IMG/VR virus record: IMGVR_UViG_3300027881_000008
Location: 11,009 to 75,008 of that record
Source of the DNA: a virus
Reading direction: 5' to 3' (one strand)
Length of the DNA: 64,000 nucleotides
Below are positions 36,824-58,275 of the stretch, piece after piece. Each line of letters starts with the position of its first letter. The first letter of the stretch is position 1. Under the pieces are notes generated by a model. It had not been told where the DNA came from. It ran no database searches and was given only the letters and a program-made list of their open reading frames with translations. The position numbers were made by a program, and so were the translations under genes.

Positions 36824-36899
36824 TTAGCGTACGGATAATTAAAAAATATCCGTACGCTAAGAATAGGTGCGTACGGATAATAGGGTATTATCCGTACGC
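36824..36899. promoter_or_regulatory. twin palindromic sites GCGTACGGATA-N9-TATCCGTACGC at the divergence point
   Basis: Copies at 36827-36857 and 36869-36899; AT-rich spacers; 42-bp period. Confidence 0.85.
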
Positions 36900-38585: not shown

Positions 38586-38596
38586 AAGGACACACG

Positions 38597-38770: not shown

Positions 38771-39579
38771 TCACCAACGTCAACCAGCGCTGGCGCGAGC
38801 GCCGCGCGAGCTACCGCCCGGCGGGCGAGCCCATCGATACCTCGCGCTTCGAGGTGGGGCCCCTGCAGGCCGACCTGGCCGAGGCTCGCGCCTTCGTCGG
38901 GCGCCATCACTACCAGCGGACGTGGCCAGCTGCGCGTGAGAGCTTCGGGCTCTACCGCTCCGACCAACTCGTGGGCGTGGCCGTCTTTGGTGTGCCCATG
39001 CAGTCAAAAGTGATCACCGGGTGCCTGCCTGGCGACCCCCTCGACCACGTCGAGCTGAGCCGCTTCGTGCTGCTCGACGAAGTGCCGGGCAACGGCGAGA
39101 GCTGGTTCCTCGCGCGTTGCTTCGCCCTACTCCGCCTCCACGGGTACCGGGGCGTCGTCAGCTTCTCCGACCCGCTGCCCCGCAGCGACAGCGCAGGCCG
39201 GGTCACGACGCCTGGGCACGTCGGGTGCATCTATCAGGCGCACAACGCCGTCTACCTCGGGCAGCGAGCGCGCAAGACGATCTACGTGCTCCCCGACGGA
39301 CGCACGTTCAACGGCCGAACGATGAGCAAGCTCCGGGGAGGCGAACAGGGGTGGCGCGGAGCCGCCCGGCAGCTCCAAGCCTACGGCGCCCCCGAACTGG
39401 GGCGCAGGCCCAGCGACAGCGCGCGACGCGCCTGGGCAACGCGCTGGCTCGGCCAGCTCACGACCCGGGTGCGTCACCCCGGTAACCACAAATACGCCTG
39501 GGGCCTCGACCGCGTCACCAAGCGCCACCTCCCCCAGTCCCTCCCCTACCCAAAGCGGCACGCTTCTCTAGCGGCCTGA
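38767..39579 (+). CDS. Mom-family (GNAT) adenine DNA-modification protein
   Basis: FVGRHHY, LVGVAVFGVP, ELSRFVL, ESWFLARC, VVSFSDP, HVGCIYQAHN. Confidence 0.85.
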   Translation: MITNVNQRWRERRASYRPAGEPIDTSRFEVGPLQADLAEARAFVGRHHYQRTWPAARESFGLYRSDQLVGVAVFGVPMQSKVITGCLPGDPLDHVELSRFVLLDEVPGNGESWFLARCFALLRLHGYRGVVSFSDPLPRSDSAGRVTTPGHVGCIYQAHNAVYLGQRARKTIYVLPDGRTFNGRTMSKLRGGEQGWRGAARQLQAYGAPELGRRPSDSARRAWATRWLGQLTTRVRHPGNHKYAWGLDRVTKRHLPQSLPYPKRHASLAA

Positions 39580-39590
39580 AAGGACACACC

Positions 39591-39818
39591 ATGACGTTTT
39601 ATCTCATCTACGCGGCGGACGGCGCCCCCGTGCGCCTTTGTCGTCCGCTCGCCCTCACCTTCGCGTCGGCCGACGAGGCCAACGCTGCCTGCGAGCGCGT
39701 CTTCGGCGCTGCAGCCGTCAACAACACCGTGCTCGTGGCGGCCTTCGGCGACGACGAGGACGAGGCCCCGAGCCCGAGCCGCGAGCAGTGGCTTGCCCTG
39801 GCGGGAGGTGCGTCATGA
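39591..39818 (+). CDS. hypothetical protein
   Basis: AAGGA SD. Confidence 0.6.
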   Translation: MTFYLIYAADGAPVRLCRPLALTFASADEANAACERVFGAAAVNNTVLVAAFGDDEDEAPSPSREQWLALAGGAS

Positions 39819-40633
39819 GCCTCCACGAATGGGAGGTGGGGGAACGCCCGCGCCGGGTGCGCCGCCGCCTCGAACGGGGCGACCAGCCGCTTACTGTGCT
39901 GCTCGCCGAGGGCGCCCACCGCGCCAACATCAAGCGGCACGTGCGCGACCAGGCGCTACGCCTCCTGGCCTGCGAGCGCGTCCCGCGCGGTCTGCTGCCG
40001 CGTCTGCACGCAGCCCGCGAACTGTGGCTGCAGCGCGAGGCCGTCCGCCACGCGCGCCGAGACCCCCTAGCCGAGCCGGCCGCAACGCGGCTCCCGCGTC
40101 TGCTGCTCGCGGTGCTCACCGGCGAGGTGGAGCGGCGCGGCGGTGAGACCACCATCGACGAGGAGCGCCGCACGGTGCATCTGGCCGTCGTGGGCTCTCC
40201 ACAGCTCACGCCGACGGGGCGCGCGTACTTGCTCCGGTGCGAGGGGTGGCGCCACTACAGCGGTCGCTTCGGCGCGCGCCGAGCCACGCTGGCCTACCTC
40301 GCGGGCCGCGACGACGGAGGCCGCTGGGCCGCCCGCGTGCCCGGGACGATGGGGTCGGCAGCCGAGGCCCTCGCTTGGTTGGAGCCCGCCGCCGTCCGCA
40401 AGGCCCGCCAGGCGGGGCGCCGGGTCGTGCGCCAGGGGGACGTCTACGCCGTCGAGACCACCTCGGCGCACGACGGCAAGGGCGAGCTGCCCGAGGACCA
40501 CCATTGGGACGCCGAGCGGCGCACCCTGACTCACCACACCCACCACCACCTGCGCATCGAACACCCGGTGCGTTTTTTCGCCCAGTCCGTACTGGCCATG
40601 GGCCGCACTGGCGGCCGACAACGAGGAGACTGA
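39815..40633 (+). CDS. hypothetical phage protein (RQGDV and His motifs)
   Basis: GGAGG SD; ATGA overlap. Confidence 0.65.
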   Translation: MSLHEWEVGERPRRVRRRLERGDQPLTVLLAEGAHRANIKRHVRDQALRLLACERVPRGLLPRLHAARELWLQREAVRHARRDPLAEPAATRLPRLLLAVLTGEVERRGGETTIDEERRTVHLAVVGSPQLTPTGRAYLLRCEGWRHYSGRFGARRATLAYLAGRDDGGRWAARVPGTMGSAAEALAWLEPAAVRKARQAGRRVVRQGDVYAVETTSAHDGKGELPEDHHWDAERRTLTHHTHHHLRIEHPVRFFAQSVLAMGRTGGRQRGD

Positions 40634-43169: not shown

Positions 43170-43367
43170 GTGAAACGGTTTGTCGTGCGCGGTAAAGTGA
43201 CGCTCGACGTCTCTACGATGGTGGAGGCGGACGACCAGGAGCGGGCCGTGGACGAGGCTGTTTGCGCGTTGGTGGCAGAGCGCGTCCGCGGGATGGGGTA
43301 TCCTACCGACATGGTCGTCGAAGCTACCGCGATGCGAGCGCGCGAAATCCCGCCGCGCCCCAGGTGA
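43170..43367 (+). CDS. hypothetical protein
   Basis: GTGA-coupled to the helicase. Confidence 0.5.
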   Translation: MKRFVVRGKVTLDVSTMVEADDQERAVDEAVCALVAERVRGMGYPTDMVVEATAMRAREIPPRPR

Positions 43368-45061
43368 GCAGTGTCGCCCGGGTGACCGGGCGCGTCGTGC
43401 TCGTTCGGCCCGACCAGCTTGGCTCGAGTTTCTCGGTCACCGTTGGTCCGCCGCCCGATCTGTTCTGGTTCCGCTGTTCGCGCAAGCCCCCCAAGCTGGG
43501 GCAGAAGGTGCGGGTAACCGGCGAGCTGGGCGACAAGAGGGACATCGGCACCAGCTCCGTGCCCGCGTCGATCACGACTCTCCACCATGCGCGCCACGAG
43601 GTGCTGCCCGACGCGCACGACACGCGCGTCGTTCCCCCGGCGTGGCTCAAGCGCGTACAGGATGTGATGGCGCGCCCGCTCTATCCTTACCAAGCCGAGG
43701 GCGCCGGCTGGATCTGCTCTCGCCTGTCGAGCGGCGGAGCTATCCTTGGCGACGACCCCGGCCTCGGAAAGAGCGCGCAGACCGTGGCGGCCATCTGCGC
43801 CATGCGCTCGTTCCCCGTCGTCGTCTGCTGCCCCAGCTCGCTCAAGCCGCACTGGGCACGCGAGTTCGGGTTCGCCAATGACGTGCCCCAGATCCAGGTC
43901 GTACACGGGAAAAAGGGGCCCCTGTACCAGGCGGACGTTTACGTCATCAACTACGAGCTGCTCCGCTCCCGCGAGGCCGAGCTCAAAGCCTTGAGGCCGC
44001 GCTTGTACGTCTTCGACGAGGCCCAGGCCCTCAAGTCCCCGCTCGCGCGCGGCAAACATCGAGCGGCAGTCGCGACCCGGCTCGTGCGTGAGACGCGCGG
44101 AGCGGTGCTGCTCTCGGGCACTCCCGTGGTCAACAGGCCCAACGAACTGTGGAGGCTGCTTCACCTCTGCGACCCCAAGGAGTGGCCGTCGTTCGCCGAC
44201 TACAAACACCGGTACCTGGAGGGGCGCAAAGGCAAAGAGGTGGGGCGTTCGGTGAGGACCGCAGCGGGCAAGGTCGAGCGCCTCGACGAGCTGCACGCCA
44301 AGGTCGGCCCCTTCCTCTTGCGGCGCCTCAAGAGCCAGGTGCTCACCGACCTGCCGCCCAAGAGTCGCCGGAGCGCGCTGGTGCGGCTGGCGGAGGCGGA
44401 TATGGCTCACTACCGGCGCGCGGAGAAGGACGTCGTAGGTTGGCTTCGGTCCATAGGGCACCTGCGCCGGGCGGCCAACGCTCAACGCGCCGAGAGCATC
44501 GTGCGGCTGACGATGCTGCGGCGCATAGCCGCCATGGGCAAGCTCCGCACCGCCATCCCCAATTACCTGCGCACCTGGTTCGCGCGCAGCGAGGCGGCTC
44601 CGCTCGTCCTCTTCGGCTATCACCGCGAGGTGATCAAGGGCCTTTGGCGCATCTGTCAGTCGATGGGACTCCGCGTCACGGGGATCGGAGGAGCGGAGGG
44701 GCCTGACAAGCGCCAGCGCCAGGTTGACGCGTTCATGGACGGACTGGCCGACGTGTTCATCGCCCCGATTGCAACGGCCGGAGTTGGACTCAATCTGCAG
44801 CGCGCGGCCGACGCTCTCTTCGTGGAGCGAATTTGGACCCCGAGCGGGATGATCCAAGCGGAGGACCGCATCTGGCGCCTGGGGCAGCGTCGCCCGGTTA
44901 CAATCACCTACCTGGACGCTGCCGGCACGGTAGACGAACACGTCGCCCAGGTGATCGATGCAAAGCAGCGTTTGATCAACGCCATCGTCGAAGACGCAGG
45001 GGGCGCGGAGTCCATGAAAACGGTCGCGGAGGTCGCTCAGAGGCTCCAAGAGGCGAGCTGA
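43364..45061 (+). CDS. SNF2-family (SMARCAL1/HARP-like) helicase
   Basis: LYPYQ, GDDPGLGKS, FDEAQ, LSGTP, GVGLNL, QAEDRIWRLGQ. Confidence 0.93.
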   Translation: MSSVARVTGRVVLVRPDQLGSSFSVTVGPPPDLFWFRCSRKPPKLGQKVRVTGELGDKRDIGTSSVPASITTLHHARHEVLPDAHDTRVVPPAWLKRVQDVMARPLYPYQAEGAGWICSRLSSGGAILGDDPGLGKSAQTVAAICAMRSFPVVVCCPSSLKPHWAREFGFANDVPQIQVVHGKKGPLYQADVYVINYELLRSREAELKALRPRLYVFDEAQALKSPLARGKHRAAVATRLVRETRGAVLLSGTPVVNRPNELWRLLHLCDPKEWPSFADYKHRYLEGRKGKEVGRSVRTAAGKVERLDELHAKVGPFLLRRLKSQVLTDLPPKSRRSALVRLAEADMAHYRRAEKDVVGWLRSIGHLRRAANAQRAESIVRLTMLRRIAAMGKLRTAIPNYLRTWFARSEAAPLVLFGYHREVIKGLWRICQSMGLRVTGIGGAEGPDKRQRQVDAFMDGLADVFIAPIATAGVGLNLQRAADALFVERIWTPSGMIQAEDRIWRLGQRRPVTITYLDAAGTVDEHVAQVIDAKQRLINAIVEDAGGAESMKTVAEVAQRLQEAS

Positions 45062-45162
45062 GCTTACGTCGCTTAGGTCGCTTACGTCGCTTAGGTCGCT
45101 TAGGTCGCTTCCGTCGCTTACGTCGCTTACGTCGCTTAGGGGCTCCAAGAGGCGAGCTGAGC
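45042..45162. repeat. 9-bp tandem array (GCTTASGTC x8+) bracketed by a 22-bp direct repeat
   Basis: Units at 45062-45140; GGCTCCAAGAGGCGAGCTGAGC at 45042-45063 and 45141-45162. Confidence 0.95.
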
Positions 45163-45841: not shown

Positions 45842-46743
45842 GGCACCGTCCACGCCAGCCGCACGATGCCCCCATCAAGACCGATTTGGGCCTCGCCGAC
45901 CAAAATCCTCTGACCGAAATTAAATCGGACACCGCCCGTGCTTGTCCTTTCAGCCCAACGTGGCGAAACGCAGGCGCGCCAGCGGCGACGGCCTCGTTCG
46001 CGAGCAGCCCTATTACGTCTATCACGAGCGTCCCTTAGGCGTGCCTTCATCGTAGCCGCGAAACGCGCGGACGAGCGACCCAACGGCCCGCTACGCGCCA
46101 GCGAGCACTTTTCGGCATTCCAGGCATTCCATTCGGCGTCGCTACGGCGACGGCCGTGGTATCCCTCTTCCACGCACCTGGGACAAGGGCGCTTGCGCGT
46201 GAGACGTGACGTGGGTTCCCAGTTGAAAGGGTCGTCCACCGCAGCGCTCGCTCGGATCTCAGCTAAGGGAACCCCTTCAAGTGCGCGAGCCTTCCCGTCG
46301 TCCACCGGGTGGGTGTGGTAAATCTCCACGGCTGCCTGGATGTGGCCGCCCTTTAGAACGGCGACATCTACGACCCTTGCGTTTGGAAGCCGGTGCTCCA
46401 CCGCGACCACGCTTGAAGCGGCGGGTCGAAAATCCGAGGTCCAACTGCCTCCGCACCCGTGTTCGGAGCAGCTGCGGCGGACGCGGATGGCTTCGCCCCC
46501 GTCTCGGGCCACCTCAAGCGCCCAGGCCACCCGCATCTTCGCAACCCGGTGGACGATGCTCTCGTGCGAGCAACCCGAGCCGAGGTGAGCGAAGTGTCGA
46601 CACACCTGCGTATCCGGGCCCCCTCGTACCATGAGCTTGCAGCGGCAAGCAGGACATACCAGCTCCTCGGTGTCGCGACTGTCCCCAGGAGGGACAAGGG
46701 TTCCGAGAGAGTCGAGCCCAAATGGAACCTTTAGCTCCTTCAT
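45829..46743 (-). CDS. CoiA-like PD-(D/E)xK nuclease with zinc finger
   Basis: CPAC...HFAH...C.HESIVH; VEHRL..RVVDVAV...AVEI. Confidence 0.8.
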   Translation of the reverse strand: MKELKVPFGLDSLGTLVPPGDSRDTEELVCPACRCKLMVRGGPDTQVCRHFAHLGSGCSHESIVHRVAKMRVAWALEVARDGGEAIRVRRSCSEHGCGGSWTSDFRPAASSVVAVEHRLPNARVVDVAVLKGGHIQAAVEIYHTHPVDDGKARALEGVPLAEIRASAAVDDPFNWEPTSRLTRKRPCPRCVEEGYHGRRRSDAEWNAWNAEKCSLARSGPLGRSSARFAATMKARLRDARDRRNRAARERGRRRWRACVSPRWAERTSTGGVRFNFGQRILVGEAQIGLDGGIVRLAWTVPQPE

Positions 46744-46747
46744 TTTC

Positions 46748-46960
46748 TTATGACGACCCCCTCTGGGCGAACCCCTGGGGCCGGAGCCTGCGCACTACGC
46801 AGGGGGGCATCGCGCGAACTACCTCCTCGAACGCTTCGGCCTCCGCCTGCTCGCGCGGAGTCCCGCTCTCCTGCTTTATCGCGGCGCGCTCCTCCAGCAG
46901 GTACGCGAGCTCGGCCTCGTCGTGGGACCGGACCACGTCCGGCGAAAGCTGGCGCGTCAC
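46748..46960 (-). CDS. small hypothetical protein (EERAAI motif)
   Basis: LLEERAAIKQESGTPREQAEAEA; AGGAG SD. Confidence 0.65.
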   Translation of the reverse strand: MTRQLSPDVVRSHDEAELAYLLEERAAIKQESGTPREQAEAEAFEEVVRAMPPCVVRRLRPQGFAQRGSS

Positions 46961-47511
46961 CAGAGCGACTCCTGGCTACCGGGCGCCGGGGTTCCGCTTT
47001 CTAGGGCCGACACGACGGCTTCGTGAGCGTCGCGAGCGGCGGAGCCCTTGCAACAAGTCTTGAACGACGCGGCTGCACCTAGGAGGGCGCCGCGCAGGTC
47101 GTCCTCCGAGGCATCCGGGTCAAGAGCGAGCATGGCCCACGCATCGACGTCGGTCCGCGCCGGCAGTTCGGGGCACGCGGCAGCGAAATAGACGGACGCC
47201 TGTGGGCCGCGCTCCCACGAGCCGAGACGTTGGCAGAAAGGGCTCATCCTCTCCCCGCACTTCGGGCACGCGACGACGACGCCCAGGGCTATCTTTACTA
47301 CTGCTGGGGGCGCGGGCGGCGCGGGCGCTACGGGCGGCGGCGGCGGCTTCGCAAACGCTGGCGCTCGCCTTATCTGCTCGCTGCAGCCATCGGCCGCCCG
47401 CGCCGCGCTTCGGCGCGCTGCGCTGGGCGCGGGCGCTGCGGTGGACGGCCACTCGTGGGGCGCCTCCATCCGGCGGCGCGGGCGACCGCCCCTGTTGGAA
47501 AAAGCGGTCAT
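46957..47511 (-). CDS. hypothetical zinc-finger protein
   Basis: Pro/Ala linker, CPKC; GTGA-coupled to the next gene. Confidence 0.5.
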   Translation of the reverse strand: MTAFSNRGGRPRRRMEAPHEWPSTAAPAPSAARRSAARAADGCSEQIRRAPAFAKPPPPPVAPAPPAPPAVVKIALGVVVACPKCGERMSPFCQRLGSWERGPQASVYFAAACPELPARTDVDAWAMLALDPDASEDDLRGALLGAAASFKTCCKGSAARDAHEAVVSALESGTPAPGSQESLW

Positions 47512-47522
47512 GTGACGTTTCT

Positions 47523-47912
47523 TCACTTCCGGTCCCCGCACACCACGCCGAAAAAGGTGCCCGGCACGGCAGGAGGGAACGGTGAAACCGAGCACATTAC
47601 CGCAGCGACCGGCGCCGCAATAAGGACGTGGCCGCCGGTAGGTGGGCGTTTTACGACGTCGCCCTCTCGCCGTCGGCCTCTTCCAGCCTGCACCTGAGAG
47701 ACTGAGCGCACAGTGGGAGGGACACCGGCGAGGTGCCGGAGACGGCTTTTGTAATACCACTTCTCCTCGCGTGGAGCGCAGTCGATGCACCCGCCGCCCG
47801 CGTCCCCGCAGCTGAAGCAAAGAGGCTCCTCGTCGCGAAAAGCGAACGGCTCTTCGCGCAGAAAGGCCGCCGCGCGTTCGACGCAGTCCTTGGGTACCTC
47901 GCTCAAATCCAC
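47523..47912 (-). CDS. hypothetical Cys-rich protein
   Basis: CFSC...CIDC; overlaps the XRE gene end. Confidence 0.5.
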   Translation of the reverse strand: MDLSEVPKDCVERAAAFLREEPFAFRDEEPLCFSCGDAGGGCIDCAPREEKWYYKSRLRHLAGVPPTVRSVSQVQAGRGRRREGDVVKRPPTGGHVLIAAPVAAVMCSVSPFPPAVPGTFFGVVCGDRK

Positions 47913-48112
47913 ACCTCGGAACTGACCTGCAACAGGCTGCGCAGGCTCCCCATGTGCTGGCGATCAGGAACGCGGGTGCCCGCCAGCCACCGGGTGACGG
48001 TGGAGGGGGACACCTCAAGCCGGCGGGCCAGCTCGCGCTGACTCCACCCTTTTTGTTGTAGAGCCAGCGCGAGCGCCTTAGCCCCGGCGTTGGTGTTTTC
48101 TGGTTCAGCCAC
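47903..48112 (-). CDS. XRE/Cro-family helix-turn-helix regulator
   Basis: KGWSQRELARRLEVSPSTVTRWLAGTRVP. Confidence 0.92.
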   Translation of the reverse strand: MAEPENTNAGAKALALALQQKGWSQRELARRLEVSPSTVTRWLAGTRVPDRQHMGSLRSLLQVSSEVWI

Positions 48113-48117
48113 GCCCC

Positions 48118-48197
48118 ATGGTGCCCAGTTGTTGCCTTCAGGTCAACAACCTTGACCTCGGCGATCTCTAGGTCCATGATGTTGCCTTGGTGGCAAC
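48118..48197. promoter_or_regulatory. divergent promoters with two 17-bp operators
   Basis: + strand TTGACC(48152)-17-CATGAT; - strand TTGACC(48146)-17-CACCAT; GTTGCC-N5-GKCAAC at 48131-48147 and 48181-48197. Confidence 0.7.
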
Positions 48198-48243
48198 GCC
48201 GGTCGCGAGCCGCCCACACAACCGCAAAGAATGGAGCCTGAAA

Positions 48244-48834
48244 ATGAAAATGGAATTGATGTTCCCCTCGAAATATCTGCGCGCTGTCGACCTCGACGGC
48301 GAGCGCCTGGTAACAATCGCCGACGTCGTCATGGATGAACTCGTCATGCGAGGAGGTCGGCGGGAGGAAAAGCCGGTCATCCACCTGAAGGGGGACGACA
48401 AGATGCTCGTCCTCAACAAGACGAACGCAGAGACCATCGCCGGCTTGTACGGAGGCGAGAGCGACGAGTGGCGAGGGAAGGAACTCGTTCTTTTCCCGAC
48501 CGACGTCACGTTTGGTCGCGAGCGGGTGCTCGCGATCCGGGTGCGCGCTCCTGGGGGCGCAAAGCAGGCCGAGAGCGGCGCTCCTTTTGGCGCCGACGAG
48601 GACGACTGGGCGGCTGCCGACGCCGAGGGGGCGCCTGACTGGTTCGGAGAGGTGGCCGCGTCCCTTTGGCTGCCGTTGGCCGCCGCCTTCGACGCAGACG
48701 AACTCGCGCGCACGGGGAGCGCCGTGAAAGAGGCTTGGGGGCGCAAGCGGATCAACCAGAACGAGCGCGACGCGCTCAAGAAGAAGTTCGTGGAGGTGCG
48801 CCGCGCTCTCCACAATGAGAGAAACTCCGCGTAG
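48244..48834 (+). CDS. putative phage ssDNA-binding (OB-fold-like) protein
   Basis: FPSKYLRAVDL...LVLNKTNAETIAGLYG...W.GK...AIRVR; acidic linker; function inferred. Confidence 0.6.
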   Translation: MKMELMFPSKYLRAVDLDGERLVTIADVVMDELVMRGGRREEKPVIHLKGDDKMLVLNKTNAETIAGLYGGESDEWRGKELVLFPTDVTFGRERVLAIRVRAPGGAKQAESGAPFGADEDDWAAADAEGAPDWFGEVAASLWLPLAAAFDADELARTGSAVKEAWGRKRINQNERDALKKKFVEVRRALHNERNSA

Positions 48835-48854: not shown

Positions 48855-51800
48855 GTGAGCCAAGCCGCTATCGACATCCACCGCCCCGAGGCGCAGTTAA
48901 GCCGCACGGTGTTGGAGCTAAAGCAGCTCGCGACCGTGTGGGGGAGGAGCGCCAAGGGGCGGAGCTATGTGGAGGCACTTCTCACGTTCCTCAACCGAAA
49001 GCAGAACCACAACACTCAGCGGGCGTACGCTTTTGGTCTTCTTGAGTTCTTCGGCTGGTACGAGCTGAAAAAGGGACGGACGCCCCTGCCCGAAGAGGTA
49101 CGGCGCGTAGACGCGTATGCGTTCAGCGATTACCTGCAGAAGCGAGACATTGGGCTCGACGAGCAGCGCCTTGCCCAGGACCCGGACCACGCGCTTGACC
49201 TCGCCATCTACCGTTACGTCAAGGGTCACCCGTCGGCGCGGATTAGCGCCATCCGCAAGAAGCTCGTCGCGGACCACCGGTTCACCCAGACTGTCGAGTT
49301 CGAGGCTGGGGGCCGCAAACAGAGCCTGCGGGTGCTCAGCATCGAGGCCGATGACCTTCGTGGCGACGCCTTGGCGGCCTACGTTGCGAAGCACGGCTTC
49401 GCTCCGCCGGACCCCCTCGACGAGCGCCTCGCGTGCATGGTCGACCACAACCTCTTGCGCAGGACCCCGACGATACGCCGCGTACGAAGCGGCGACGCCG
49501 GACTCGGCCTGGAGCACCCGAGCCGCGCCCAGCTCGACTTCCGTGTCGACCCCGAGGTTTTCTCGTATTTTGTGGACGTCCACACCACCGCGTCTGGCGC
49601 CGAGCGCGCCAATAGCGTAGTGACCCGGCTCAGTGCGTTAGCGAGCTTCTGGACCTACCTGATCACCGAATCAGCGGAGAACGCCGCGGGGAGCGAGCCC
49701 CTCCTCAAACACAACATTTGGACCGAGCCCCGCGCGCAGCTCATGGGCGCAGCCAAGAGCCGCAGCCGTGCCTCGCGCGAGCTGAAGACGCCGTCTCGTG
49801 AGCTGTTTTTAAGGGTCTTGGCGACGACGTTCGTGCGCAGTCACGAGGGCCAGGAGCTGCAGGCGGCCAGCGCGTTTCTCGAAGGCGCCGACGTCAGCGG
49901 GTCTTCCAGCGGGGAGGCCGGCATTTACGACCTGCGTGACCGGGCGCTGATGGTTTTCGCCTATTGGACCGGCGCGCGCGCCGAGGAGATGCGGTCGCTG
50001 TCTCGCGACGCGGTGCAGCCTGACGGCCTCGTAACGGTGCTGGGGAAAGGAGACAAAACCCGTTCTTTTGCCGTGCCCCCTCCGGCTCTGCGCGCGATCT
50101 CCGACTTCCAGGCAGAGCTTGACGCAAGGTCCGAGGGTTCGTCCGACCCCAATGCCCTGGTCCACAAGCTCACCGCGTCCGCGGCGCCGCTGTTCCCGCC
50201 CCTGAAGCTTTGGGGCCACAACCGAGGAGCCCAGTTGGTGGGACTCTCCGCCGACTCTTTCTCGAAGATGATGCGGCACCGGGGCCTCCGCGCAGGGGTG
50301 GGGCGACAGAGCGCCGAGTGGAAGAAGCTCCACGCCCATGGGGTGCGACACCTGGCCGCGCTCGAAGCCCGGCAAAGGGGGGTCGACCTCGCCACCATCC
50401 AGGGCACCCTCGGTCACTCCAGCCTGTCCACCACGGGGATCTACATCGAGGTGCGCGACCCCCTGAAACGGTCTCTCATGCCTGCGCGCTCCGCCCCCGG
50501 CGGCGCTCCCCCCTTCCAGCGGCGCGCCCCAGGGCACGAGCACCCCGAGGCGGAGGAGGTGATCGAGGAGATAGAGATCGACGAAGAGCCGGGGCTGGTC
50601 GGGGTGGGCGGCCAACCCGAGGTCCCACCTGGCCTCTACGAGGAGGACGAGGAAGCTGGCGACGAGCCTTTCCCACTTGATGAAGAGGAAGAGGAGGCGC
50701 CCGAAGAGGACGCCCTGACGCTCGTCCACCGGGACGCCGAAGAACTCGTGGCGGAGACCGATGCGGTCGAGAAGCTTCTCCAGGTCTACCGGAGCAACTG
50801 GGGCGAAACGGGGAAGCGGGCCAAGCTGGTGGATGCGAAGGGCCTGTTGGGGAGCACGTACGCGGGGCGACCTACGGGGCTTCCGTGGTGGCAGGGCGCG
50901 GCGGGCGCTATGAACGCCTCCTACTCCTACGTTCCCAACGAGGCAGAGACGACGAAGTTCCCGGCCATGCCAGTGATAGGGCCCCAGCAATTCGTGATGG
51001 AAGCCGGGTGGGGCGAAGAAGACTGCGACGAGCCTCTCTGCCAGGCGCTCGGCGAGCTTTATTCGCAGTGGCTCCAGGACCCCGAGCGCGGGCCCACAGC
51101 CGCGGCGGCGTTGACAGAATGGATCTTCACCTCAGCGATGGTGACGCTCGAAGTGGATGCGGTGGTGCGCGAGCGGTCAGGCCACTGGGTGGCGTTCGAC
51201 TCCCCGCTCGAAGACACAAAGAGCGGCCAGGGAAAGCCTCGGGTGTTGCGCGAGCACCTCAACGACGCTGTGGTGAGCTGGTTCGAGCGGACGGCATGGC
51301 AGTTCCGCCGCAGCGCCGACAGCGCCACCGCTCGCGGCTCCGAGCTCACCGTCCCTGCCTGGTACTCAAAGAAAGACCCGCTGCTCGACATCCCCGCTCC
51401 TGAGCGCGCCGAACTCATCGACTGGCTGCAGGTTTTCGTGGGCCTTCCCCCACTCGACAAGACGCCGCGCTTCGACCACGGCGCCTCGCGGGCCAAGGTG
51501 GGAAAGCTGCTGGGCACCCTGTGCGCGTACGACACTCTGGCGACCGACCCCGACCGCACCCGCAAGCGCGAGCAAAAAGAGATCCTCAGCGCCGTGGAAG
51601 ATCAGATCACCGCCGACGTGAAGCGAGCAACCAAGGGGCGCGTCGCGGATTTCCGCTACGGCGACACCAAGAAGCGCCGCAAGATCGAAACCGTCCAGGC
51701 CGAAATGGCGCGCGAAAAATCCAAGAGAGAGGGCAGCGAAGAAGCCGCCGAGGCTTCTACCAAATACTCGAAATACCTTGCGACCCACCTCATGGAGGTC

Positions 51801-52451
51801 GTGGGAGAGGTCTTCGGAAAGAAGGCAGCTGAAGACCCAATCCTCAGCCTATACGCTCTATGCACGGCCGGAGCGCCGCTCAAGTCGCGCGCCGACAAGT
51901 ACAAACCACTGTTCCGGGCGGGGGGCGGAACCATCGAGCACACTCCCGAGTTCGCCGAGCAGTTCGCCCAGGAGACGGGCACTCACTCCGAATGCGTGGC
52001 GCGCCGTCTGGCGCGGCACATCTACGAGGAGGGACGCGCCCCCAAATGGTACAAGCTCCGCAACTGGCCGCGTGACGTTATCCCTTACCTCGAGTCGCTT
52101 TCCGCCTACCGCGTTCCGTGCCCGTCGAGCCAAGAACACGAACTCCGAAAGCGACTCAAAAGCGAAGAGCCACTTCCCGTCTACAGGCGGTGGCGCGAGG
52201 CTAGCCAGCGACTTCTGGGGACATCGGTTCCAGAGTCCACCGAGGTGGAAGAGATGTTCGCGGAGGAGGCGGGGCGGGGAGCGCCCATCCAGGCTTTCCG
52301 CCCGAGGGACGCAGAGGACTACGAGACGCGTCAGGTCTCCTCCGAAGAGAGCGCCGGGGGCCCAGGCGTGGTGGTTCGCCGCCGCCTCGCGACCCCCAAC
52401 GGGATGCAGCTGCTCCCGCTCTTGTTCGCGATGAAAAGGGCACGAGGATGA
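48855..52451 (+). CDS. giant tyrosine recombinase/integrase with long unknown C-terminal region
   Basis: RDRAL...TGARAEE (R), GKGDKTR (K), HGVRH (HxxR), LGHSSLSTTGIY (H, Y). Confidence 0.9.
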   Translation: MSQAAIDIHRPEAQLSRTVLELKQLATVWGRSAKGRSYVEALLTFLNRKQNHNTQRAYAFGLLEFFGWYELKKGRTPLPEEVRRVDAYAFSDYLQKRDIGLDEQRLAQDPDHALDLAIYRYVKGHPSARISAIRKKLVADHRFTQTVEFEAGGRKQSLRVLSIEADDLRGDALAAYVAKHGFAPPDPLDERLACMVDHNLLRRTPTIRRVRSGDAGLGLEHPSRAQLDFRVDPEVFSYFVDVHTTASGAERANSVVTRLSALASFWTYLITESAENAAGSEPLLKHNIWTEPRAQLMGAAKSRSRASRELKTPSRELFLRVLATTFVRSHEGQELQAASAFLEGADVSGSSSGEAGIYDLRDRALMVFAYWTGARAEEMRSLSRDAVQPDGLVTVLGKGDKTRSFAVPPPALRAISDFQAELDARSEGSSDPNALVHKLTASAAPLFPPLKLWGHNRGAQLVGLSADSFSKMMRHRGLRAGVGRQSAEWKKLHAHGVRHLAALEARQRGVDLATIQGTLGHSSLSTTGIYIEVRDPLKRSLMPARSAPGGAPPFQRRAPGHEHPEAEEVIEEIEIDEEPGLVGVGGQPEVPPGLYEEDEEAGDEPFPLDEEEEEAPEEDALTLVHRDAEELVAETDAVEKLLQVYRSNWGETGKRAKLVDAKGLLGSTYAGRPTGLPWWQGAAGAMNASYSYVPNEAETTKFPAMPVIGPQQFVMEAGWGEEDCDEPLCQALGELYSQWLQDPERGPTAAAALTEWIFTSAMVTLEVDAVVRERSGHWVAFDSPLEDTKSGQGKPRVLREHLNDAVVSWFERTAWQFRRSADSATARGSELTVPAWYSKKDPLLDIPAPERAELIDWLQVFVGLPPLDKTPRFDHGASRAKVGKLLGTLCAYDTLATDPDRTRKREQKEILSAVEDQITADVKRATKGRVADFRYGDTKKRRKIETVQAEMAREKSKREGSEEAAEASTKYSKYLATHLMEVVGEVFGKKAAEDPILSLYALCTAGAPLKSRADKYKPLFRAGGGTIEHTPEFAEQFAQETGTHSECVARRLARHIYEEGRAPKWYKLRNWPRDVIPYLESLSAYRVPCPSSQEHELRKRLKSEEPLPVYRRWREASQRLLGTSVPESTEVEEMFAEEAGRGAPIQAFRPRDAEDYETRQVSSEESAGGPGVVVRRRLATPNGMQLLPLLFAMKRARG

Positions 52452-52924
52452 GACGCGGGTACCTGCGCCTCTACGTCTACGCCAAGAACGGCGAGCGCAT
52501 CGTCGCCAGCCCGATTTTGTCGGCGGCGCTTCTTCCCTCTACCACCATCCCTGGGCTTCCCGGCGAAGCTTGGGAGCTGGCCGATAGGAACGAGGAGGGC
52601 CTCCGGCGCGCGGCCGTCGAGCTGCTCGTCCACCGCCGCAAGCGCTCCAACAGCCGCGTGTACGGGATAGCCTTGGTAAAAGGCCCCGCAAGAAGGAACT
52701 CCGCCTACCTCTCGCGGGCCGCGGGCCGCCCGGTGAGCCTCACTGCAACGAACAGTTACATTGCCGCGTTCGCGGCTGTCGGCGACAGCAACACCGTGTG
52801 GGCCGGGGATGCGCAACGAGAGACGCTTAGCGACCTGGTGACCCACCTGGGGCGCTGCGTCCGGCACGTACGTACCGAAGAGACCCAGGAGCCCGGGATG
52901 TTCGCGCCTGCTCTGGAGAGATGA
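52448..52924 (+). CDS. hypothetical protein coupled to the recombinase
   Basis: ATGA overlap. Confidence 0.65.
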   Translation: MRRGYLRLYVYAKNGERIVASPILSAALLPSTTIPGLPGEAWELADRNEEGLRRAAVELLVHRRKRSNSRVYGIALVKGPARRNSAYLSRAAGRPVSLTATNSYIAAFAAVGDSNTVWAGDAQRETLSDLVTHLGRCVRHVRTEETQEPGMFAPALER

Positions 52925-52982: not shown

Positions 52983-53414
52983 TCACGGGAGTGCGGAGGA
53001 GTGGTGGTTGGCGATCTGCCAATGGCCCGTGCGGGAGGGGTCGACGAGGACGTAAGAGAACCTGGCGGCTGCGCTGTTCGATGGAGGCCAGCGAAAGTGG
53101 TAGAGCCCGGAGACCACCACCGCCCCGCCGGGTAGCGACTGCACGACCACCGTCGTCGGGTCGATGGCGCCGCACAGGCCGGGACGCTCACCCAGGAAAC
53201 GGACGAAGTATGCCCCGATGGCCCGGTGCCCCTGAAGGACCTCAGACCCGAAGGTAGGGATGAGAACGGCGCGCCGGCCGTACAGGCTCAGGGGCGAAGC
53301 CGGGTCGCCGCTGCACACCGCGCGCATCCACCGCGAGAGGAACGCAGTGGCGGCCTCCTCCCGCTGTCCCTGGTTGTGGAGGAGCACTCCCTGCCTTCCG
53401 TATGTGGCGCTCAT
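52983..53414 (-). CDS. NTF2-like (DUF4440/CaMKII-association-domain-like) protein
   Basis: W..AV.SGDP...LY...AVLIPTF...IGAYFVRFL...SGLYHF...ARFSYV...WQIANHHSSALP. Confidence 0.85.
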   Translation of the reverse strand: MSATYGRQGVLLHNQGQREEAATAFLSRWMRAVCSGDPASPLSLYGRRAVLIPTFGSEVLQGHRAIGAYFVRFLGERPGLCGAIDPTTVVVQSLPGGAVVVSGLYHFRWPPSNSAAARFSYVLVDPSRTGHWQIANHHSSALP

Positions 53415-55009
53415 TTCTCCGCCTCTTCGCGCACCATTCCTAGGAACTGCTCCCAGGGGAAGTTGGGCCCGGGATCGTAGTGGTCGCTTTTGCCAAAAGC
53501 CTTGGTGCCGTCTACGTGGCCGCAGAAGCCGCTCTTTCCCGAGCGCATGTCGGTGGGTCCGATCTTCTCGATAGGGATCCCCCACCGCGTGGCAGCGTCG
53601 GAGGCCACCTTGGCCGCGCGCCGGAGCATCTTCTGGCTGAAGTCGTCCGACCAATCCTCGGCCGATTGTTTTGCGTATCCCGCGAGCTCGATGTGCACGG
53701 AATAAGTATTTGCGCCGCCACAACCATAGGCAATATCATGCTCGAAAACGCAGCCGATGGTGTTCTCGGAGTCCAGGCACCAATGAGCACTGGCAACAGG
53801 CGCCGAGGCGCCGGACGCAAACCACCTACTTACCGCGAGAGCAGTCGATGGCTTCTCGCTTGCCTCCATGGTGTGGCACATGAGCCAGCGCACGTCGGTG
53901 CGGTTTGCCGGGCGGTAGTTCGTGGCCTGGATGAACTGGTCAGCGTTTTCGTCGGGTCCCTCCGGGTCGCCAAAGAGAGCCGCCCGAGTGGCTGCTCCTA
54001 CGACACCGTCGACCACCAAAGAGGGGGTCTGTACCGCCTGGAACTCGCGCACGCGGGAGTCAGTGAGCGCTCCAAAGTCACCGTCCGCGCCGTAAGGGCT
54101 GAGGTCGTACCCCAGCTCCGAAAGCCGCTCCTGAAGGTCCTTCACGTCGTCGCCCTTCATCCCCTTTTTGAGCGGGCTGCGCCAATCGGCGCCAGGCTCA
54201 GGCTCGGGCGTAGGCCCAGGAGGAGGCGGGTCCGGATTGTCCGGGTGCCCGGGGCCGTGGGTGGCCGTCCGCGGGTAAGTGGTCCCCGGGAGGGGGCCCT
54301 CGCTGGAGACGAGGCCAGCAAGGTCGGGGTCGACCAGGATGTCCGCGAGGTCGGCCTCAGCGCCGTCGAGGTAACACCGGCGGCGAACGAGCCCTGTCAC
54401 GAGCTGCGAATAGTCGGCGAACGTGTCCACATGCGCTGTAGCGAGGGGCTGCAGCACTAGGACACCTGGGGTCACACCTGTGTACTTGCTCCCGCTCTCG
54501 ACGTGCCAACCGTAGTTTGCCGCCTTGCCCTCGCCGGTCCCGAAGACGCGGGGTGAAAGGACGAAGGACTTCCCGACGGTCCAGAGGAGCCCGCACCGGC
54601 CGGCGCGCTCCTGGTCGATGGACTTACTCTCCTCTACGAAGCGGCTGGTGTACGCCATCTCGGCGTCCGGCGTCTGGGTGCAGGGCCTAAGAACCACCCC
54701 GCCACCACCTCTGACGCGCATCCAGATTAGGTCGCAAATCTTGGCGGTGGGGAGCAGGCAGTCGAGCTGCTCCGCGATTGCGCTGGCCGTCAAGGCGTTG
54801 CAGGCGACCCGCACGCTGTCCCCCGGCACGCCTATCTGGAGCGCGTCGGTGGCGACGTCCAAGCGCAGGGTGTGGCCGTCGGCTACCACTTCGAGGGGGG
54901 TGAACATCACGAGCGCGCCGCCTTCAAGGACCGCGTCGAAGATCTGGTCCTCGCGTTGCTGGCCGGGTTGTTCGGGGAGAGTAGGGATCCATGCGCTCGC
55001 GGTAATCAT
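53411..55009 (-). CDS. modular endolysin: unknown N-domain + peptidoglycan-binding + Amidase_2
   Basis: LKKGMKGDDVKDLQERL...DGDFGALT; CHTME, SAHW, IELAG, CGHVD, HYDPG. Confidence 0.9.
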   Translation of the reverse strand: MITASAWIPTLPEQPGQQREDQIFDAVLEGGALVMFTPLEVVADGHTLRLDVATDALQIGVPGDSVRVACNALTASAIAEQLDCLLPTAKICDLIWMRVRGGGGVVLRPCTQTPDAEMAYTSRFVEESKSIDQERAGRCGLLWTVGKSFVLSPRVFGTGEGKAANYGWHVESGSKYTGVTPGVLVLQPLATAHVDTFADYSQLVTGLVRRRCYLDGAEADLADILVDPDLAGLVSSEGPLPGTTYPRTATHGPGHPDNPDPPPPGPTPEPEPGADWRSPLKKGMKGDDVKDLQERLSELGYDLSPYGADGDFGALTDSRVREFQAVQTPSLVVDGVVGAATRAALFGDPEGPDENADQFIQATNYRPANRTDVRWLMCHTMEASEKPSTALAVSRWFASGASAPVASAHWCLDSENTIGCVFEHDIAYGCGGANTYSVHIELAGYAKQSAEDWSDDFSQKMLRRAAKVASDAATRWGIPIEKIGPTDMRSGKSGFCGHVDGTKAFGKSDHYDPGPNFPWEQFLGMVREEAEK

Positions 55010-55695
55010 CGCGAGGAAGAGTACAACGACGAGGCCACGTAGCCAATGGCCACCCCTAGGACCAAGGGCACAAAGAAGGGAAGGGGCGCCTCGGAGCCCG
55101 GCGGGGGAGACACAGGAGGGCCGGGCTGAGGCGGCACGGGGGGAGTCGGCCCGGGGGCGCCGAGATGGGGGTAGAGCGACGTCTCAGCTGCGGCGCCGGA
55201 AGGCGAGAAGGTGATGTGGACGTGGTCGCGATGGGGGCTGGGGCCGTTGTAGGGGCGCCACTCTTTGGAACCGGCGCTCCAAATGCGACGGTCCCAGATG
55301 ACGTACCGAATGCCTGCTCGACGGAGGTTAGCGTGGGGCTCCCCGTTAGGGCCTGGAGCGAAGAGCCAGTGGAAGAAGAGGTTCACCCGCTCGACGTCGG
55401 CAGGGTTGTTTACGTTGACTTTCCAGTCCCAGGCGCGCCCCTCGTTGTGCTCGCTCTTTGCGGGCTTCCCCTCGCACCCGCGACAAATCCCGCTGTCGCC
55501 ACCGCCTAGGTGTTCCAAGATGAACTTGCGGAAGAGCACAGCGCCGGGCTGGGGTCCCTTGAGACACTTCGTAGCCTTCACCGACGTGGCGTACCCGTCC
55601 ACGGGCCCCGGGAACGAAGGAAGGGCTCCCGTGGGGGCGAGCCCGACCAAATCCTTGGGGAAGAACATGCAAGCTGGTCGGGAAAGGTCGGGCAT
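55006..55695 (-). CDS. zinc-peptidase-like (M15-type) cell-wall hydrolase with C-terminal TM
   Basis: SEHNEGRAWDW (HxxxxxxD), HRDHVH; Pro linker + TM; AGGAGGA SD. Confidence 0.75.
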   Translation of the reverse strand: MPDLSRPACMFFPKDLVGLAPTGALPSFPGPVDGYATSVKATKCLKGPQPGAVLFRKFILEHLGGGDSGICRGCEGKPAKSEHNEGRAWDWKVNVNNPADVERVNLFFHWLFAPGPNGEPHANLRRAGIRYVIWDRRIWSAGSKEWRPYNGPSPHRDHVHITFSPSGAAAETSLYPHLGAPGPTPPVPPQPGPPVSPPPGSEAPLPFFVPLVLGVAIGYVASSLYSSSR

Positions 55696-55704: not shown

Positions 55705-58275
55705 TTAAAACAGGTCTGCGTCCACCCACTCGATTGTGGGGAACGCCCGCTGACGGGGGTTCTGGCTCATTTCGGCCAGCCCATCAGTGAGCCCAAACAT
55801 TCGCCCAAACACGTAGTCCTCGGCTTCGTCCTGCGTGAGGTCGAGTCCGTCGATCCGCTCGGCGATGGTCGCCTGTTTGTCGACCAGCATGGCGGCGATC
55901 ACCCCGTCCACCGTGTTCTCTGCCTGGATATAGGTGATAGTGCATTTGTTCTCCTGCCCGATCCTCCAGATACGGTCCTCGGCCTGCACCTGGTCCATGG
56001 GCCGCCAGGTACGCTCGAGGAACAGAGTCTCGCTAGCGGCGGTGAGAGTGAGCCCCGCGCCCGCCGCGGGTATCGAGCAAACCAACACGTCGAGTTCGCC
56101 GGCTTGGAAGGCGTCCTTGTACGCCGTACGGCGAGCTTCCGCGACGCCTCCAATGATCTGGCCGACGCGGAGCTTTCGGGTGACCCCGGCGTGCTCGACC
56201 TCCGTCTCCTTCAAGAGCTTGGTCAGGCCCTCGGTGACGTCGCGGTGGTAGGCCATCACCACCAACGGTCGGCCCGTGGATTCGTAGTGGCCCGTGATCC
56301 ACTCGACCGCGTAGGGGATCTTTCCCACGGCGGCGAGCTTGCGCAGAGCGGTCATCTTGGTGATCGCTTGAGCGCGCATGTGTTTCTCCACCGCCTCGGG
56401 ACCGCCTTTGGTTCCCACCCAGTCGATGAAATCCTTAGCCGCCCGCTTGTACTCTTTAGCGGTCTTAGGCTCCAACGCGATGAGCTTGGTCTGGCGTGAC
56501 TTAGGAGGAAGGGGCAAGATGTCCTTGGTCCTGCGCAACATGTAGTTCTCCGTCAGCACCGAGAACAGTTCCTTGCCGTTGCTGGCGCCGTCGAAGTTCC
56601 ACGTCTTGATGATGCGCCCGCCCCGGCAACGGCTGCGTGCGCAGGAGGCGGGAGGCTTGAAGCAGCGCCCGCATTTTGTTTCGAGGACGCCGTCGCAATA
56701 GCGAAGACCGAATTTTTGGTAGCTATCCCACCGCTCAGCGTCCAAAAAGTGCAAAAGAGGCCAAAGCTCCTTGGGACGGTTCATGAGCGGGGTAGCCGTG
56801 AGTAGGAAGACGCGCCCGGCGTCCTGCGACAGCTCGATGAACGCCTTGGCTCGATTGCTTCCCACGTATTTGCCGCGCTGCTGGCGGAGAGTCTTTAGGT
56901 AATGCGCCTCGTCAGCGATGAGGGTGGCGATCCGAAGCTTGCCCAACATTTTTGCGTGGGATGGGAGCACGTCGTAATTGATGACCACAACGTCAGCGGC
57001 CTTGTACTTGGCCAGCTTGTAGGGTTTGCGCCCCGCCACCACCATTACCGAAAATTCGCTGCGCCACTTCCCCATCTCGCGAAGCCATTCGACTCGTAGG
57101 GTGGCGGGGCACACCACGACCACGGGGGCGTCGGCTGCGACGCAAGCTTGGAGCGTCTTGCCTAGACCCGGCTCGTCGGCCAACAGCCCGCTGCGCTTCT
57201 TGTCGAGCCAGCTGATCCCTTCGACCTGGTACGGAAAGGCCACAGATGGAACGGAGCGGGCAGGAGCAGACGGCGCCGGCGCTGGCGCGTTTTCTTTCTT
57301 AGCGTCGGCGGAGGCCGCCTTCAGTTCGGACTTCTGGTCCTTGTCGTTGGAGACCATCTTCAGCTCGCGGTACGAGAAGAAGGTGAGCCCCCCGCTCACG
57401 CCCTTGTAGCCGAGACCCACGCGGGGCGACCCGTCGCGGTTCGTCCCCACCCATCGCACTACGCCCTCGCGGCCCTCGGGGTCGATTACCCGCTCCCCCT
57501 TCTGGAGGGCCTTGCGGGCCTCCTCGATGGTCCAGGCGTCGGTCTCGTTGGTGGCGCTCGTCGGAGGCCCCGCAGGAGGCGTCACAGGCGGAGGAAACTG
57601 CACGTCCCGGGGCACCACCGCCATGTTCCCCTCGAGGTCAAGCATGAGCTGGCCCGCGAAGGCGACGCTAAGAGCGGCGATGAGGTGGTCGATCTTATCT
57701 TCAGGTACGCACCACACCTTCTGGTGGCCCACCCACACGCGCCCGGGAACCGACTTCACCGCCTTGATGAAATCGGCGTTGAAGGGAGTCTTCGCACAAA
57801 TCCTTCCGGGCCCGACACGCACCAGCTTGATCTCGGAACCGGCGCGCTGGCCTTCGACGTAAAAGGAACGAAAGCGCCCAGCCGTTGCCCAGAAGCCGCA
57901 CCCCGCGGCGACCTTCTCGGCGGCGGCCACGACCACCTTCCAGTCGGGCCCCGTGTAGCTCGCCGCCATCGCCGCGTGCCAGATCGCTTTGTTGGTTGCC
58001 GCGCGGTAGTCGCCGACCGAGGCGGCGCTCGCAATGGAGGCTCGCATCTCCTCGGGAGCCATCGCGATCCCCTGGGCCAAGAGGTCCAGGTCCGGAGACC
58101 CCACCTCGCCGGCCTCCACCCCGAACTTCTCCTCGCAGATCGGGCCGATGCCCAGTTCGACGCTTCGCGCGTCGCGGAGCGGCCGGTTGCACATGCAGCA
58201 GTGAGTCGCCAGGAGCTTGGTCGATACAGCGTCCTCGTAGCCGTTTGGAGTGTAGGGGGCCTGCGTCACTGTCAT
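55705..58275 (-). CDS. SNF2/SMARCAL1-like helicase with N-terminal DUF6011-like zinc finger and HARP-like domain
   Basis: CCMCNRPLRDARSVELGIGPIC; PFNADFIKAVKSVPGRVW; ADEPGLGKT, DEAH, QAEDRIWRIGQ. Confidence 0.92.
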   Translation of the reverse strand: MTVTQAPYTPNGYEDAVSTKLLATHCCMCNRPLRDARSVELGIGPICEEKFGVEAGEVGSPDLDLLAQGIAMAPEEMRASIASAASVGDYRAATNKAIWHAAMAASYTGPDWKVVVAAAEKVAAGCGFWATAGRFRSFYVEGQRAGSEIKLVRVGPGRICAKTPFNADFIKAVKSVPGRVWVGHQKVWCVPEDKIDHLIAALSVAFAGQLMLDLEGNMAVVPRDVQFPPPVTPPAGPPTSATNETDAWTIEEARKALQKGERVIDPEGREGVVRWVGTNRDGSPRVGLGYKGVSGGLTFFSYRELKMVSNDKDQKSELKAASADAKKENAPAPAPSAPARSVPSVAFPYQVEGISWLDKKRSGLLADEPGLGKTLQACVAADAPVVVVCPATLRVEWLREMGKWRSEFSVMVVAGRKPYKLAKYKAADVVVINYDVLPSHAKMLGKLRIATLIADEAHYLKTLRQQRGKYVGSNRAKAFIELSQDAGRVFLLTATPLMNRPKELWPLLHFLDAERWDSYQKFGLRYCDGVLETKCGRCFKPPASCARSRCRGGRIIKTWNFDGASNGKELFSVLTENYMLRRTKDILPLPPKSRQTKLIALEPKTAKEYKRAAKDFIDWVGTKGGPEAVEKHMRAQAITKMTALRKLAAVGKIPYAVEWITGHYESTGRPLVVMAYHRDVTEGLTKLLKETEVEHAGVTRKLRVGQIIGGVAEARRTAYKDAFQAGELDVLVCSIPAAGAGLTLTAASETLFLERTWRPMDQVQAEDRIWRIGQENKCTITYIQAENTVDGVIAAMLVDKQATIAERIDGLDLTQDEAEDYVFGRMFGLTDGLAEMSQNPRQRAFPTIEWVDADLF

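Follow-up and report, generated by a model that had tools for sequence, protein, structure and literature searches.

A 1198-residue tyrosine recombinase with a predicted winged-helix insertion and a large C-terminal domain in an uncultured phage lineage

Tyrosine recombinases are central to the biology of mobile elements, and Cre, Flp and lambda Int are used as tools of genome engineering. To our knowledge, the architectures of these enzymes are limited to a core-binding (CB) domain and a catalytic (CAT) domain, with or without an arm-binding domain. Cre of phage P1 is the precedent for a phage recombinase of the simple type that circularises and resolves its own genome. The protelomerases (TelK, TelN, TelA, ResT) are phage-encoded and combine the tyrosine-recombinase fold with extra N- and C-terminal domains, and MrpR/YopR of SPbeta and SroF of phi3T have lost the catalytic residues and act as repressors. 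Here we describe an extended tyrosine recombinase (P0001) encoded in a 64,000-nt stretch of viral DNA, called the window below, which comprises bases 11009-75008 of the 75,008-bp IMG/VR virus record IMGVR_UViG_3300027881_000008. The record is of class 'linear', and CheckV estimates its completeness at 52%.

In a published survey of 437 phages that encode a tyrosine recombinase, the enzyme was of the arm-binding type in 410 and of the simple type in only 27 (PMC8138268). Simple recombinases gain subgroup-specific insertions while the core is kept, such as the two CB domains of RitA, the C-terminal helix of RitC and the insertions of Tn554 TnpA (PMC8138268, Smyshlyaev et al. 2021); in a text search of that article, neither a winged helix within the CB domain nor a post-catalytic domain of several hundred residues was found among the additions described. 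A literature search for large or extended phage tyrosine recombinases gave no match.

Core and added domains of the recombinase

Judged from its sequence, the protein is very probably an active recombinase whose extra domains are native. Its gene lies at 48855-52451 on the plus strand, where a single unbroken open reading frame (ORF) with a GTG start encodes 1198 aa, and AGGAGGTGG is located about 13 nt 5' of the start codon. The GC content by codon position is even from end to end (about 0.8 at the third position and about 0.45-0.5 at the second); therefore, the region represents one coding frame, and a hidden frameshift or an erroneous joining of genes is excluded. Ten full-length relatives of 1174-1385 aa likewise support the gene. 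The range given in the first-pass annotation, 48855-52924, holds two genes rather than one, and the stop codon of the recombinase overlaps, as ATGA, the ATG of a 158-aa ORF at 52448-52924 on the plus strand (P0002). The coupling of this small gene to the recombinase, which had been noticed at the same time, is borne out, as in 14 loci a homologue follows the recombinase immediately, and the overlap is often the same.

The enzyme class is clear. The R-K-HxxR-H-Y set reported beforehand is complete and consists of R375, K398, H495, R498, H521 and Y530, whose checked codons start at 49977, 50046, 50337, 50346, 50415 and 50442, respectively; all six residues are invariant across 61 aligned homologues. 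The Pfam profile PF00589 covers residues 359-534 with E 6e-16 and 59.1 bits, above its cut-off of 27.1, and nothing else was found in a Pfam scan at E up to 0.1. PHROG integrase families also match (E 1e-18 to 8e-20). The closest NCBIfam profiles are XerC, XerA and XerD, all far under their equivalog cut-offs (78.1 bits against 335 for XerC, 67.4 against 220 for XerA, and 63.5 against 330 for XerD), and the closest PDB sequences are XerD and XerA chains.

An AlphaFold2 model of residues 1-560, built on the alignment of 61 homologues, has a pLDDT of 93.8 and a pTM of 0.88. In a structure search with this model, the N-terminal approximately 550 aa were found to fold as a core of the Xer/Cre/lambda-Int type at Z 16-19, with XerA at 18.8, Cre at about 17, and XerH, IntI and Tn1549 Int also among the superposed structures. 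Residues 75-356 of lambda Int superpose at Z 17.7 (rmsd 3.8, 273 residues). About 270-300 of the roughly 520 model residues spanned are aligned to recombinase structures. For isolated catalytic domains (lambda Int, HP1, P2 and XerD), the alignment has a Z of 12-14 and starts from about residue 305-311, and type IB topoisomerases align to the same domain at Z of about 10. On the basis of PF00589, these alignments and the invariant residues, the CAT domain is placed at residues ~306-550 (49770-50504, plus strand). The CB domain is in two parts on the same strand: the first half at residues ~17-100 (48903-49154), supported by the high pLDDT of the model and by N-terminal domains of lambda Int and other integrases that align at 32-308 with the middle skipped, and the second half with the CB-CAT linker at residues ~246-305 (49590-49769), supported by the model and the structure alignments.

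No arm-binding domain is present in the model. XerA, IntI and Cre are aligned from model residues 24-34 on, and in lambda Int the aligned part starts at residue 74, opposite model residue 34; the 16-30 or so residues that precede the CB domain leave no room for an arm-binding domain of about 60 residues. As modelled, the core is thus a 'simple' tyrosine recombinase in the scheme of PMC8138268 (CB and CAT, no arm-binding domain), although the whole protein exceeds the 'CB + CAT only' definition of that class through the insertion at residues 105-245 and a C-terminal region of 580 residues.

The insertion interrupts the CB domain. Stand-alone CB domains, such as those of lambda Int and other integrases, align to residues ~33-100 plus 246-300, and in a VIA wide search about 20 winged-helix proteins aligned to model residues 109-243 (Z 7.0-7.9, rmsd 1.2-3.2, 54-72 residues). 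The latter include MarR, MexR, Z-alpha, IclR, MecI and ArsR-type proteins, and nearly the whole of each target is covered. With CB domains aligned on both sides and winged helices between them, the insertion at residues ~105-245 (49167-49589, plus strand) is a winged helix that splits the CB domain, with a predicted fold of a helix-turn-helix (HTH) and a beta-hairpin wing. It has no match to a Pfam HTH profile. A beta-hairpin/helix excursion nested within it at residues ~143-185 is missing from two distant homologues (P0010 and P0011). The winged-helix character proposed for this insertion in the first-pass annotation is therefore retained, but its length is about 140 aa instead of about 160 aa. 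The Glu-rich linker described there corresponds to an acidic stretch at residues ~551-618 (50505-50708, plus strand) with 20-21 Asp and Glu per 100 residues, the length of which varies among homologues; in the model, the pLDDT drops to 53-72 at residues 540-560.

The linker is followed by a family-specific domain of 525 residues, mostly helical, at residues 619-1143 (50709-52283, plus strand), hereafter the C-domain, which is defined by its AlphaFold2 model, its invariant columns and 100 sequence clusters. The C-terminal region had been set down as impossible to assign, and it has no match in Pfam, PHROG or NCBIfam, including a Pfam scan of 24 members at E up to 1; the ESM Atlas gave no usable match. 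The region is not one of the common domains already known. The model of the C-domain, based on an alignment of 67 sequences (pLDDT 86, pTM 0.83), consists chiefly of helices with small beta elements, followed by about 38 disordered residues and a last helix. Foldseek searches with the whole model returned nothing below E 0.1 in PDB and nothing below 0.04 in BFVD, and the best hit in the VIA wide search had a Z of 5.9, with generic helical matches restricted to model residues 247-387. At the level of the whole model, the predicted C-domain is therefore without match to solved or BFVD structures; we do not claim it as a new fold. As a candidate for a known domain, domain III of exopolyphosphatase (PPX), which is HD-like, was rejected: an hmmsearch against PDB gave E 5e-4 over 86 residues, the hhalign probability against E. 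coli PPX was 0.7%, and the metal-binding His is not conserved.

The invariant residues of the C-domain are W678, W679, G681, P706, Q712, W756, R799, H801, W809, P842, H1029, S1045, C1047, R1050, R1051 and C1089; H1044 is kept in at least 90% of the sequences, and the signature motif of the domain is HSECVARRxAR. The protein P0083 is missing both conserved Cys (C1047 and C1089) together, which fits a shared role such as a metal site. The pattern of conserved residues suggests a putative His2Cys2 metal site, made up of H1029, H1044, C1047 and C1089, next to the basic helix ARRxAR. At the C-terminus, a disordered tail (residues 1144-1180) precedes residues 1181-1198, where a P-N-(P/G) motif and a last, hydrophobic helix are located, the whole being encoded at 52284-52448 on the plus strand. 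The motif and the hydrophobic stretch after it are kept in all members, with P1181 invariant and N1182 and L1186 nearly so. In the model, the tail has a pLDDT of 36-38 and is followed by a helix at 565-579 in C-domain numbering. The same tail is carried by stand-alone C-domain proteins, and this extreme C-terminus has the look of a tethered docking peptide.

Compared with the Xer proteins (XerC/XerD, XerA, XerH) and Cre, the phage enzyme shares the CB and CAT fold and the R-K-HxxR-H-Y active site, likewise lacks an arm-binding domain, and is best matched by the XerC, XerA and XerD profiles. Unlike them, it is four times larger, contains a winged helix within the CB domain and some 580 extra C-terminal residues, reaches 78 bits with the XerC profile instead of 335, and is coupled to a small partner gene; no dif- or lox-like site was identified. 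With the lambda-type integrases it has in common the superposable CAT and CB domains, the matches to PHROG integrase families and an adjacent small HTH gene, but it has no N-terminal arm-binding domain, its extra domains are within the CB domain and at the C-terminus, and no prophage copy or phage attachment site (attP) was found. As for protelomerases, palindromes are present in this genome too, but the enzyme has no protelomerase profile match, none is among the structure matches listed, and its extra domains have no detected similarity to any solved structure beyond the winged-helix alignments. The phage-encoded repressors MrpR/YopR and SroF share the fold with the recombinase at Z 11-13; in contrast to them, it keeps all six catalytic residues invariant.

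Family, distribution and gene neighbourhood

An exhaustive HMMER search of 1.84 billion representatives with the C-domain yielded 100 clusters at E up to 0.001. Nearly all of these proteins have 1100-1470 aa, with the domain at about residues 600-1200, and most of the shorter matches begin in the middle of the domain and are fragments. A search limited to shorter proteins returned only fragments, on contigs of 1.4-3 kb. P0058 and P0083 begin with MTKKK right before the C-domain and look like genuine stand-alone forms, suggesting that the C-domain is an autonomous module.

Scans of viral and metagenome collections gave 4 and 39 loci, respectively, on contigs of up to 144 kb, and one cluster (P0020) is on a contig of 182 kb. 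All members of the C-domain family come from metagenomic, phage-like contigs and belong to one syntenic lineage, in agreement with the idea that the homologues are confined to one virus group. In 185,579 reference species genomes, a scan with two short peptide patterns, which can miss members, retrieved no family member, only unrelated integrase domains. In each of the four virus records, one gene scores above the Pfam cut-off for PF00589. The identities of the recombinase and of the neighbouring SNF2 helicase drop in similar order across loci, which reads as vertical inheritance. These data show that an uncultured lineage of large phages with high GC content and contigs of about 90-180 kb carries the recombinase as a single-copy gene. 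The records of this lineage are all fragments, and the 'linear' label mostly means a fragment. DNA matching the window occurs in seawater, marine and cold-seep metagenome runs, and DNA with 99-100% identity to the recombinase region was found in at least 13 studies, covering seawater or marine metagenomes and three coded organisms.

The recombinase is the second gene of an operon. The first one (48244-48834, plus strand; about 196 aa) belongs to phrog_21613 (unknown function) and is not conserved in related loci. The partner protein P0002 has no match in Pfam, PHROG or NCBIfam and no usable match in the ESM Atlas; a complex prediction for the C-domain and P0002 gave a score of 0.01, which is uninformative either way. 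Divergent from the operon is a gene for a 69-aa XRE-type HTH protein (47903-48112, minus strand; HTH_3, E 9e-12); in loci L010, L012 and L017/L026 a homologue of this gene immediately precedes the recombinase in the same orientation, and in L004 it is nearby. Between this gene and the operon, a divergent control region of 131 bp (48113-48243) was read from the sequence. It contains a predicted promoter-like site, TTGACC-17-CATGAT, at 48152-48180, short palindromes GTTGTTG..CAACAAC, and a further palindrome GTTGCC-N5-GGCAAC at 48183-48199. A 618-aa minus-strand ORF at 46957-48813 was rejected as probably spurious, being rich in Arg and Gly, with a GC3 of 0.69 and no homologue in related loci.

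Further away, a SNF2-family helicase gene (43262-45061, plus strand) is syntenic with the recombinase in 13 related loci, and so is a second SNF2 helicase gene with a DUF6011 N-terminus (55705-58275, minus strand). Downstream of the recombinase and on the strand opposite to it, a gene for a 229-aa protein with no match in Pfam, PHROG or NCBIfam (55006-55695, minus strand) recurs in 13 related loci, and a UvrD-type helicase is conserved around the recombinase in 11 loci. An NTF2/SnoaL-like gene (CaMKII_AD, DUF4440; 52983-53408, minus strand), located after an amidase/peptidoglycan-binding lysin gene, is convergent with the P0002 gene, the two stop codons being only about 58 nt apart. The record further encodes a DnaB-like helicase, a C5-methyltransferase, Mom-like and ArdA-like proteins, and lysis proteins. 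Rfam gave no match over 44.5-53.6 kb, and no tRNA gene is near the recombinase, the sole tRNA gene of the window being at 3955-4031. ParB_N has no match in the record and two matches in a single relative, which is uninformative.

Proposed role and competing explanations

We tentatively propose that, as a core recombinase of the lineage, the enzyme works on the DNA of the phage itself, either in Cre/Xer-like multimer resolution or in circularising the incoming DNA. Four subunits would synapse two short inverted-arm sites on the phage DNA, and the 3'-phosphotyrosyl bond would be formed by Y530 in the manner of Cre or XerCD. Added site recognition and control may come from the winged helix and the C-domain, which might stand in for the arm-binding domains, Xis or FtsK of other systems. 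The form of the genome could then be managed by resolving replication multimers or by circularising incoming DNA, as Cre does for P1. The recombinase sits among replication and recombination genes (SNF2, UvrD), and this synteny is kept across 13-14 loci. The points that speak against integration, set out below, together with the core-gene behaviour and the simple-type core, tilt the interpretation towards such a role, each of them as an indirect argument.

Several observations weigh against this proposal. No recombination site was identified, and no genome in the lineage is complete. When contigs of four runs were compared with 36.5-56.5 kb, indels and divergence were seen but no junction pointing to a recombination site; the comparison is one of contigs, which drop rare variants. 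The scan of reference genomes rested on two short peptide patterns, which members of the family can escape. A small HTH gene beside a recombinase is also the classic layout of an integrase with a regulator or excisionase, PHROG names the core 'integrase', and near-identical DNA occurs in runs labelled as coded organisms A-C, which are possible prophage hosts. Moreover, simple recombinases do integrate some phages, for example those of the Brujita type (PMC8138268). The functions that we give to the winged helix and the C-domain are ones that we infer.

Lysogenic integration is a close rival. It would make the protein the integrase of a temperate phage with a host attachment site (attB), in which the winged helix and the C-domain replace the arm-binding domain, and regulation or directionality would be the task of the small HTH protein, P0002 or both. 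The matches to PHROG integrase families argue for this, as does the fact that the enzyme is the sole tyrosine recombinase above the Pfam cut-off in each of the four virus records. The adjoining XRE-type HTH gene, which in several relatives is directly upstream on the same strand in a xis-int-like layout, the conserved downstream partner of the P0002 family and the near-identical DNA in runs of coded organisms point the same way. However, the pattern scan of the reference genomes found no copy, and none of the related IMG/VR records, all of class 'linear', is labelled a provirus. The conserved helicase synteny over deep divergence is unlike that of exchangeable integration modules. The spacers flanking the operon, of only about 20 nt and 58 nt, leave no room for an adjacent attP, no non-coding region of that size stands beside it, and contigs from four other runs are collinear right through 47.5-56.5 kb. 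In addition, the simple type is a minority among phage integrases (PMC8138268). An integrase of this kind is a real possibility, but insertion into the host chromosome in the manner of lambda seems less likely than resolution or circularisation.

Another programmed rearrangement, namely inversion or deletion of a segment, or a topoisomerase-like relaxation alongside the SNF2 and UvrD helicases, appears improbable. Two unexpectedly long inverted repeats would be candidate substrates, one of 38 nt and 97% identity (17244-17281 and 37930-37967) and one of 25 nt and 100% identity (35136-35160 and 46050-46074). Neither resembles a clear core site with its arm-spacer-arm layout, one of the 25-nt arms is within a 923-bp segment missing from near-identical relatives, and no strand-switch joints were seen in the contigs over 36.5-56.5 kb, although contigs drop rare variants. 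The alignment of the CAT domain to type IB topoisomerases at Z of about 10 and the position of the gene among helicases would suit relaxation, but the sequence affinity is to recombinases and not to topoisomerase IB.

Still less credit can be given to the role at genome ends that had been suggested for this protein. A protelomerase would cut a palindromic site such as 36824-36899 and seal hairpin ends, and the extra domains would be comparable to the muzzle and stirrup of TelK. A pair of adjacent 11-9-11 palindromes based on GCGTACGGATA is indeed present, at one place in the window (four half-sites, with 0.65 expected), all lineage records are 'linear', though this label mostly means a fragment, and protelomerases are likewise proteins of the tyrosine-recombinase fold with large extra domains. 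Against this, Pfam at E up to 0.1 gives PF00589 only and the best profiles are XerC, XerA and XerD. The matches listed down to Z 7.0 from two structure searches include Xer, Cre, lambda Int, IntI, topoisomerase IB, Flp and SSV1 integrase but no protelomerase. The nearest enzymes are XerC, XerD and XerA in sequence, and Xer, Cre and lambda Int in fold. The palindromes, at a distance of 12 kb from the gene, constitute two different tandem sites and lie in a divergent, promoter-like, AT-rich island of operator type, and a 100%-identical seawater contig reads through them. We regard this role as very improbable.

The palindromes at 36827-36899 are a feature in their own right. Their 11-bp arms (GCGTACGGATA) are separated by a 9-bp spacer within an AT-rich island between divergent genes, the half-site is found nowhere else in the window, and no link to the recombinase was found; they are probably an operator.

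The notion that the long ORF is an assembly or annotation artefact joining an integrase to an unrelated downstream gene is refuted: the apparently stand-alone P0058 and P0083 imply that the halves can exist separately, but fusion is the rule among homologues, with more than 60 independent full-length fused proteins from many samples, one continuous codon-bias signal runs through the ORF, and independent runs carry the region at 99-100% identity with no indel inside the gene among the indel rows listed, so that the multi-domain recombinase of the first-pass annotation is real.

Other features of the window and significance of the family

Several repeats are scattered over the window. A feature at 17207-17316 and 37930-37967 consists of two 38-nt direct repeats (97%) around a 35-nt segment, and this segment is exactly reverse-complementary to a stretch of the C5-methyltransferase gene of the same phage. 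The arrangement has a repeat-spacer-repeat look, yet it belongs, in frame, to an ORF with its start at 17181 (…PGMTLLGGGAGA-VGRRDLGAVDDR-PGMALLGGGAGA…). The perfect 25-nt inverted repeat at 35136-35160 and 46050-46074 has its arms 10.9 kb apart and is far beyond chance. An 84-nt direct repeat (99%) at 34980-35063 and 36404-36487, with copies 1.4 kb apart, extends over two apparent gene starts (…CATGGCGCCTCCTC…). At 45044-45151, between the SNF2 helicase and ArdA-like genes, about ten 9-bp tandem units GCTTA(C/G)GTC form an iteron-like array, which is flanked by a 41-nt direct repeat and varies in copy number between runs.

Two regions differ among close relatives. The 923-bp segment at 45845-46767, which holds a 304-aa ORF with a weak match to CoiA_N/DUF7830, is precisely missing in the ~95-99% identical DNA of three other runs and present in an identical seawater contig; it has the appearance of a mobile insertion, a homing-type nuclease gene being one example. 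The methyltransferase/Mom-like region at 37650-40060 is replaced or strongly diverged in near-identical relatives, in which the recombinase region is 99% identical, and can be regarded as a putative hot spot of anti-restriction gene exchange. PHROG left most of the large ORFs of the window and of locus L051 without a match, and this applies to a co-directional block of 20 kb at 1.9-22 kb as well. Families of terminase, portal or capsid proteins were not found among the ORFs tested, but the record is about half a genome, so this carries little weight.

The enzyme class described here is already known, and the architecture is confined to one uncultured phage lineage. What is new is the presence of two large conserved modules on an intact catalytic core, one with a fold of the DNA-binding type within the CB domain and the other without a detectable relative. 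The family marks a widespread uncultured phage lineage with contigs of 90-180 kb, most genes of which are unassigned, and the motif SECVARRxAR is a convenient probe for it, one scan having retrieved the 39 related metagenome loci. A more far-reaching interpretation, to which we give little credence at present, is that the protein represents a third architectural class beside 'simple' and 'complex' recombinases, having its own winged-helix module and a new-fold, metal-binding control domain with a docking peptide, which would couple strand exchange to the replication or helicase machinery of undescribed large phages in which structural genes can hardly be recognised. The two added modules could reveal a new mode of site choice or of directionality control without host factors.

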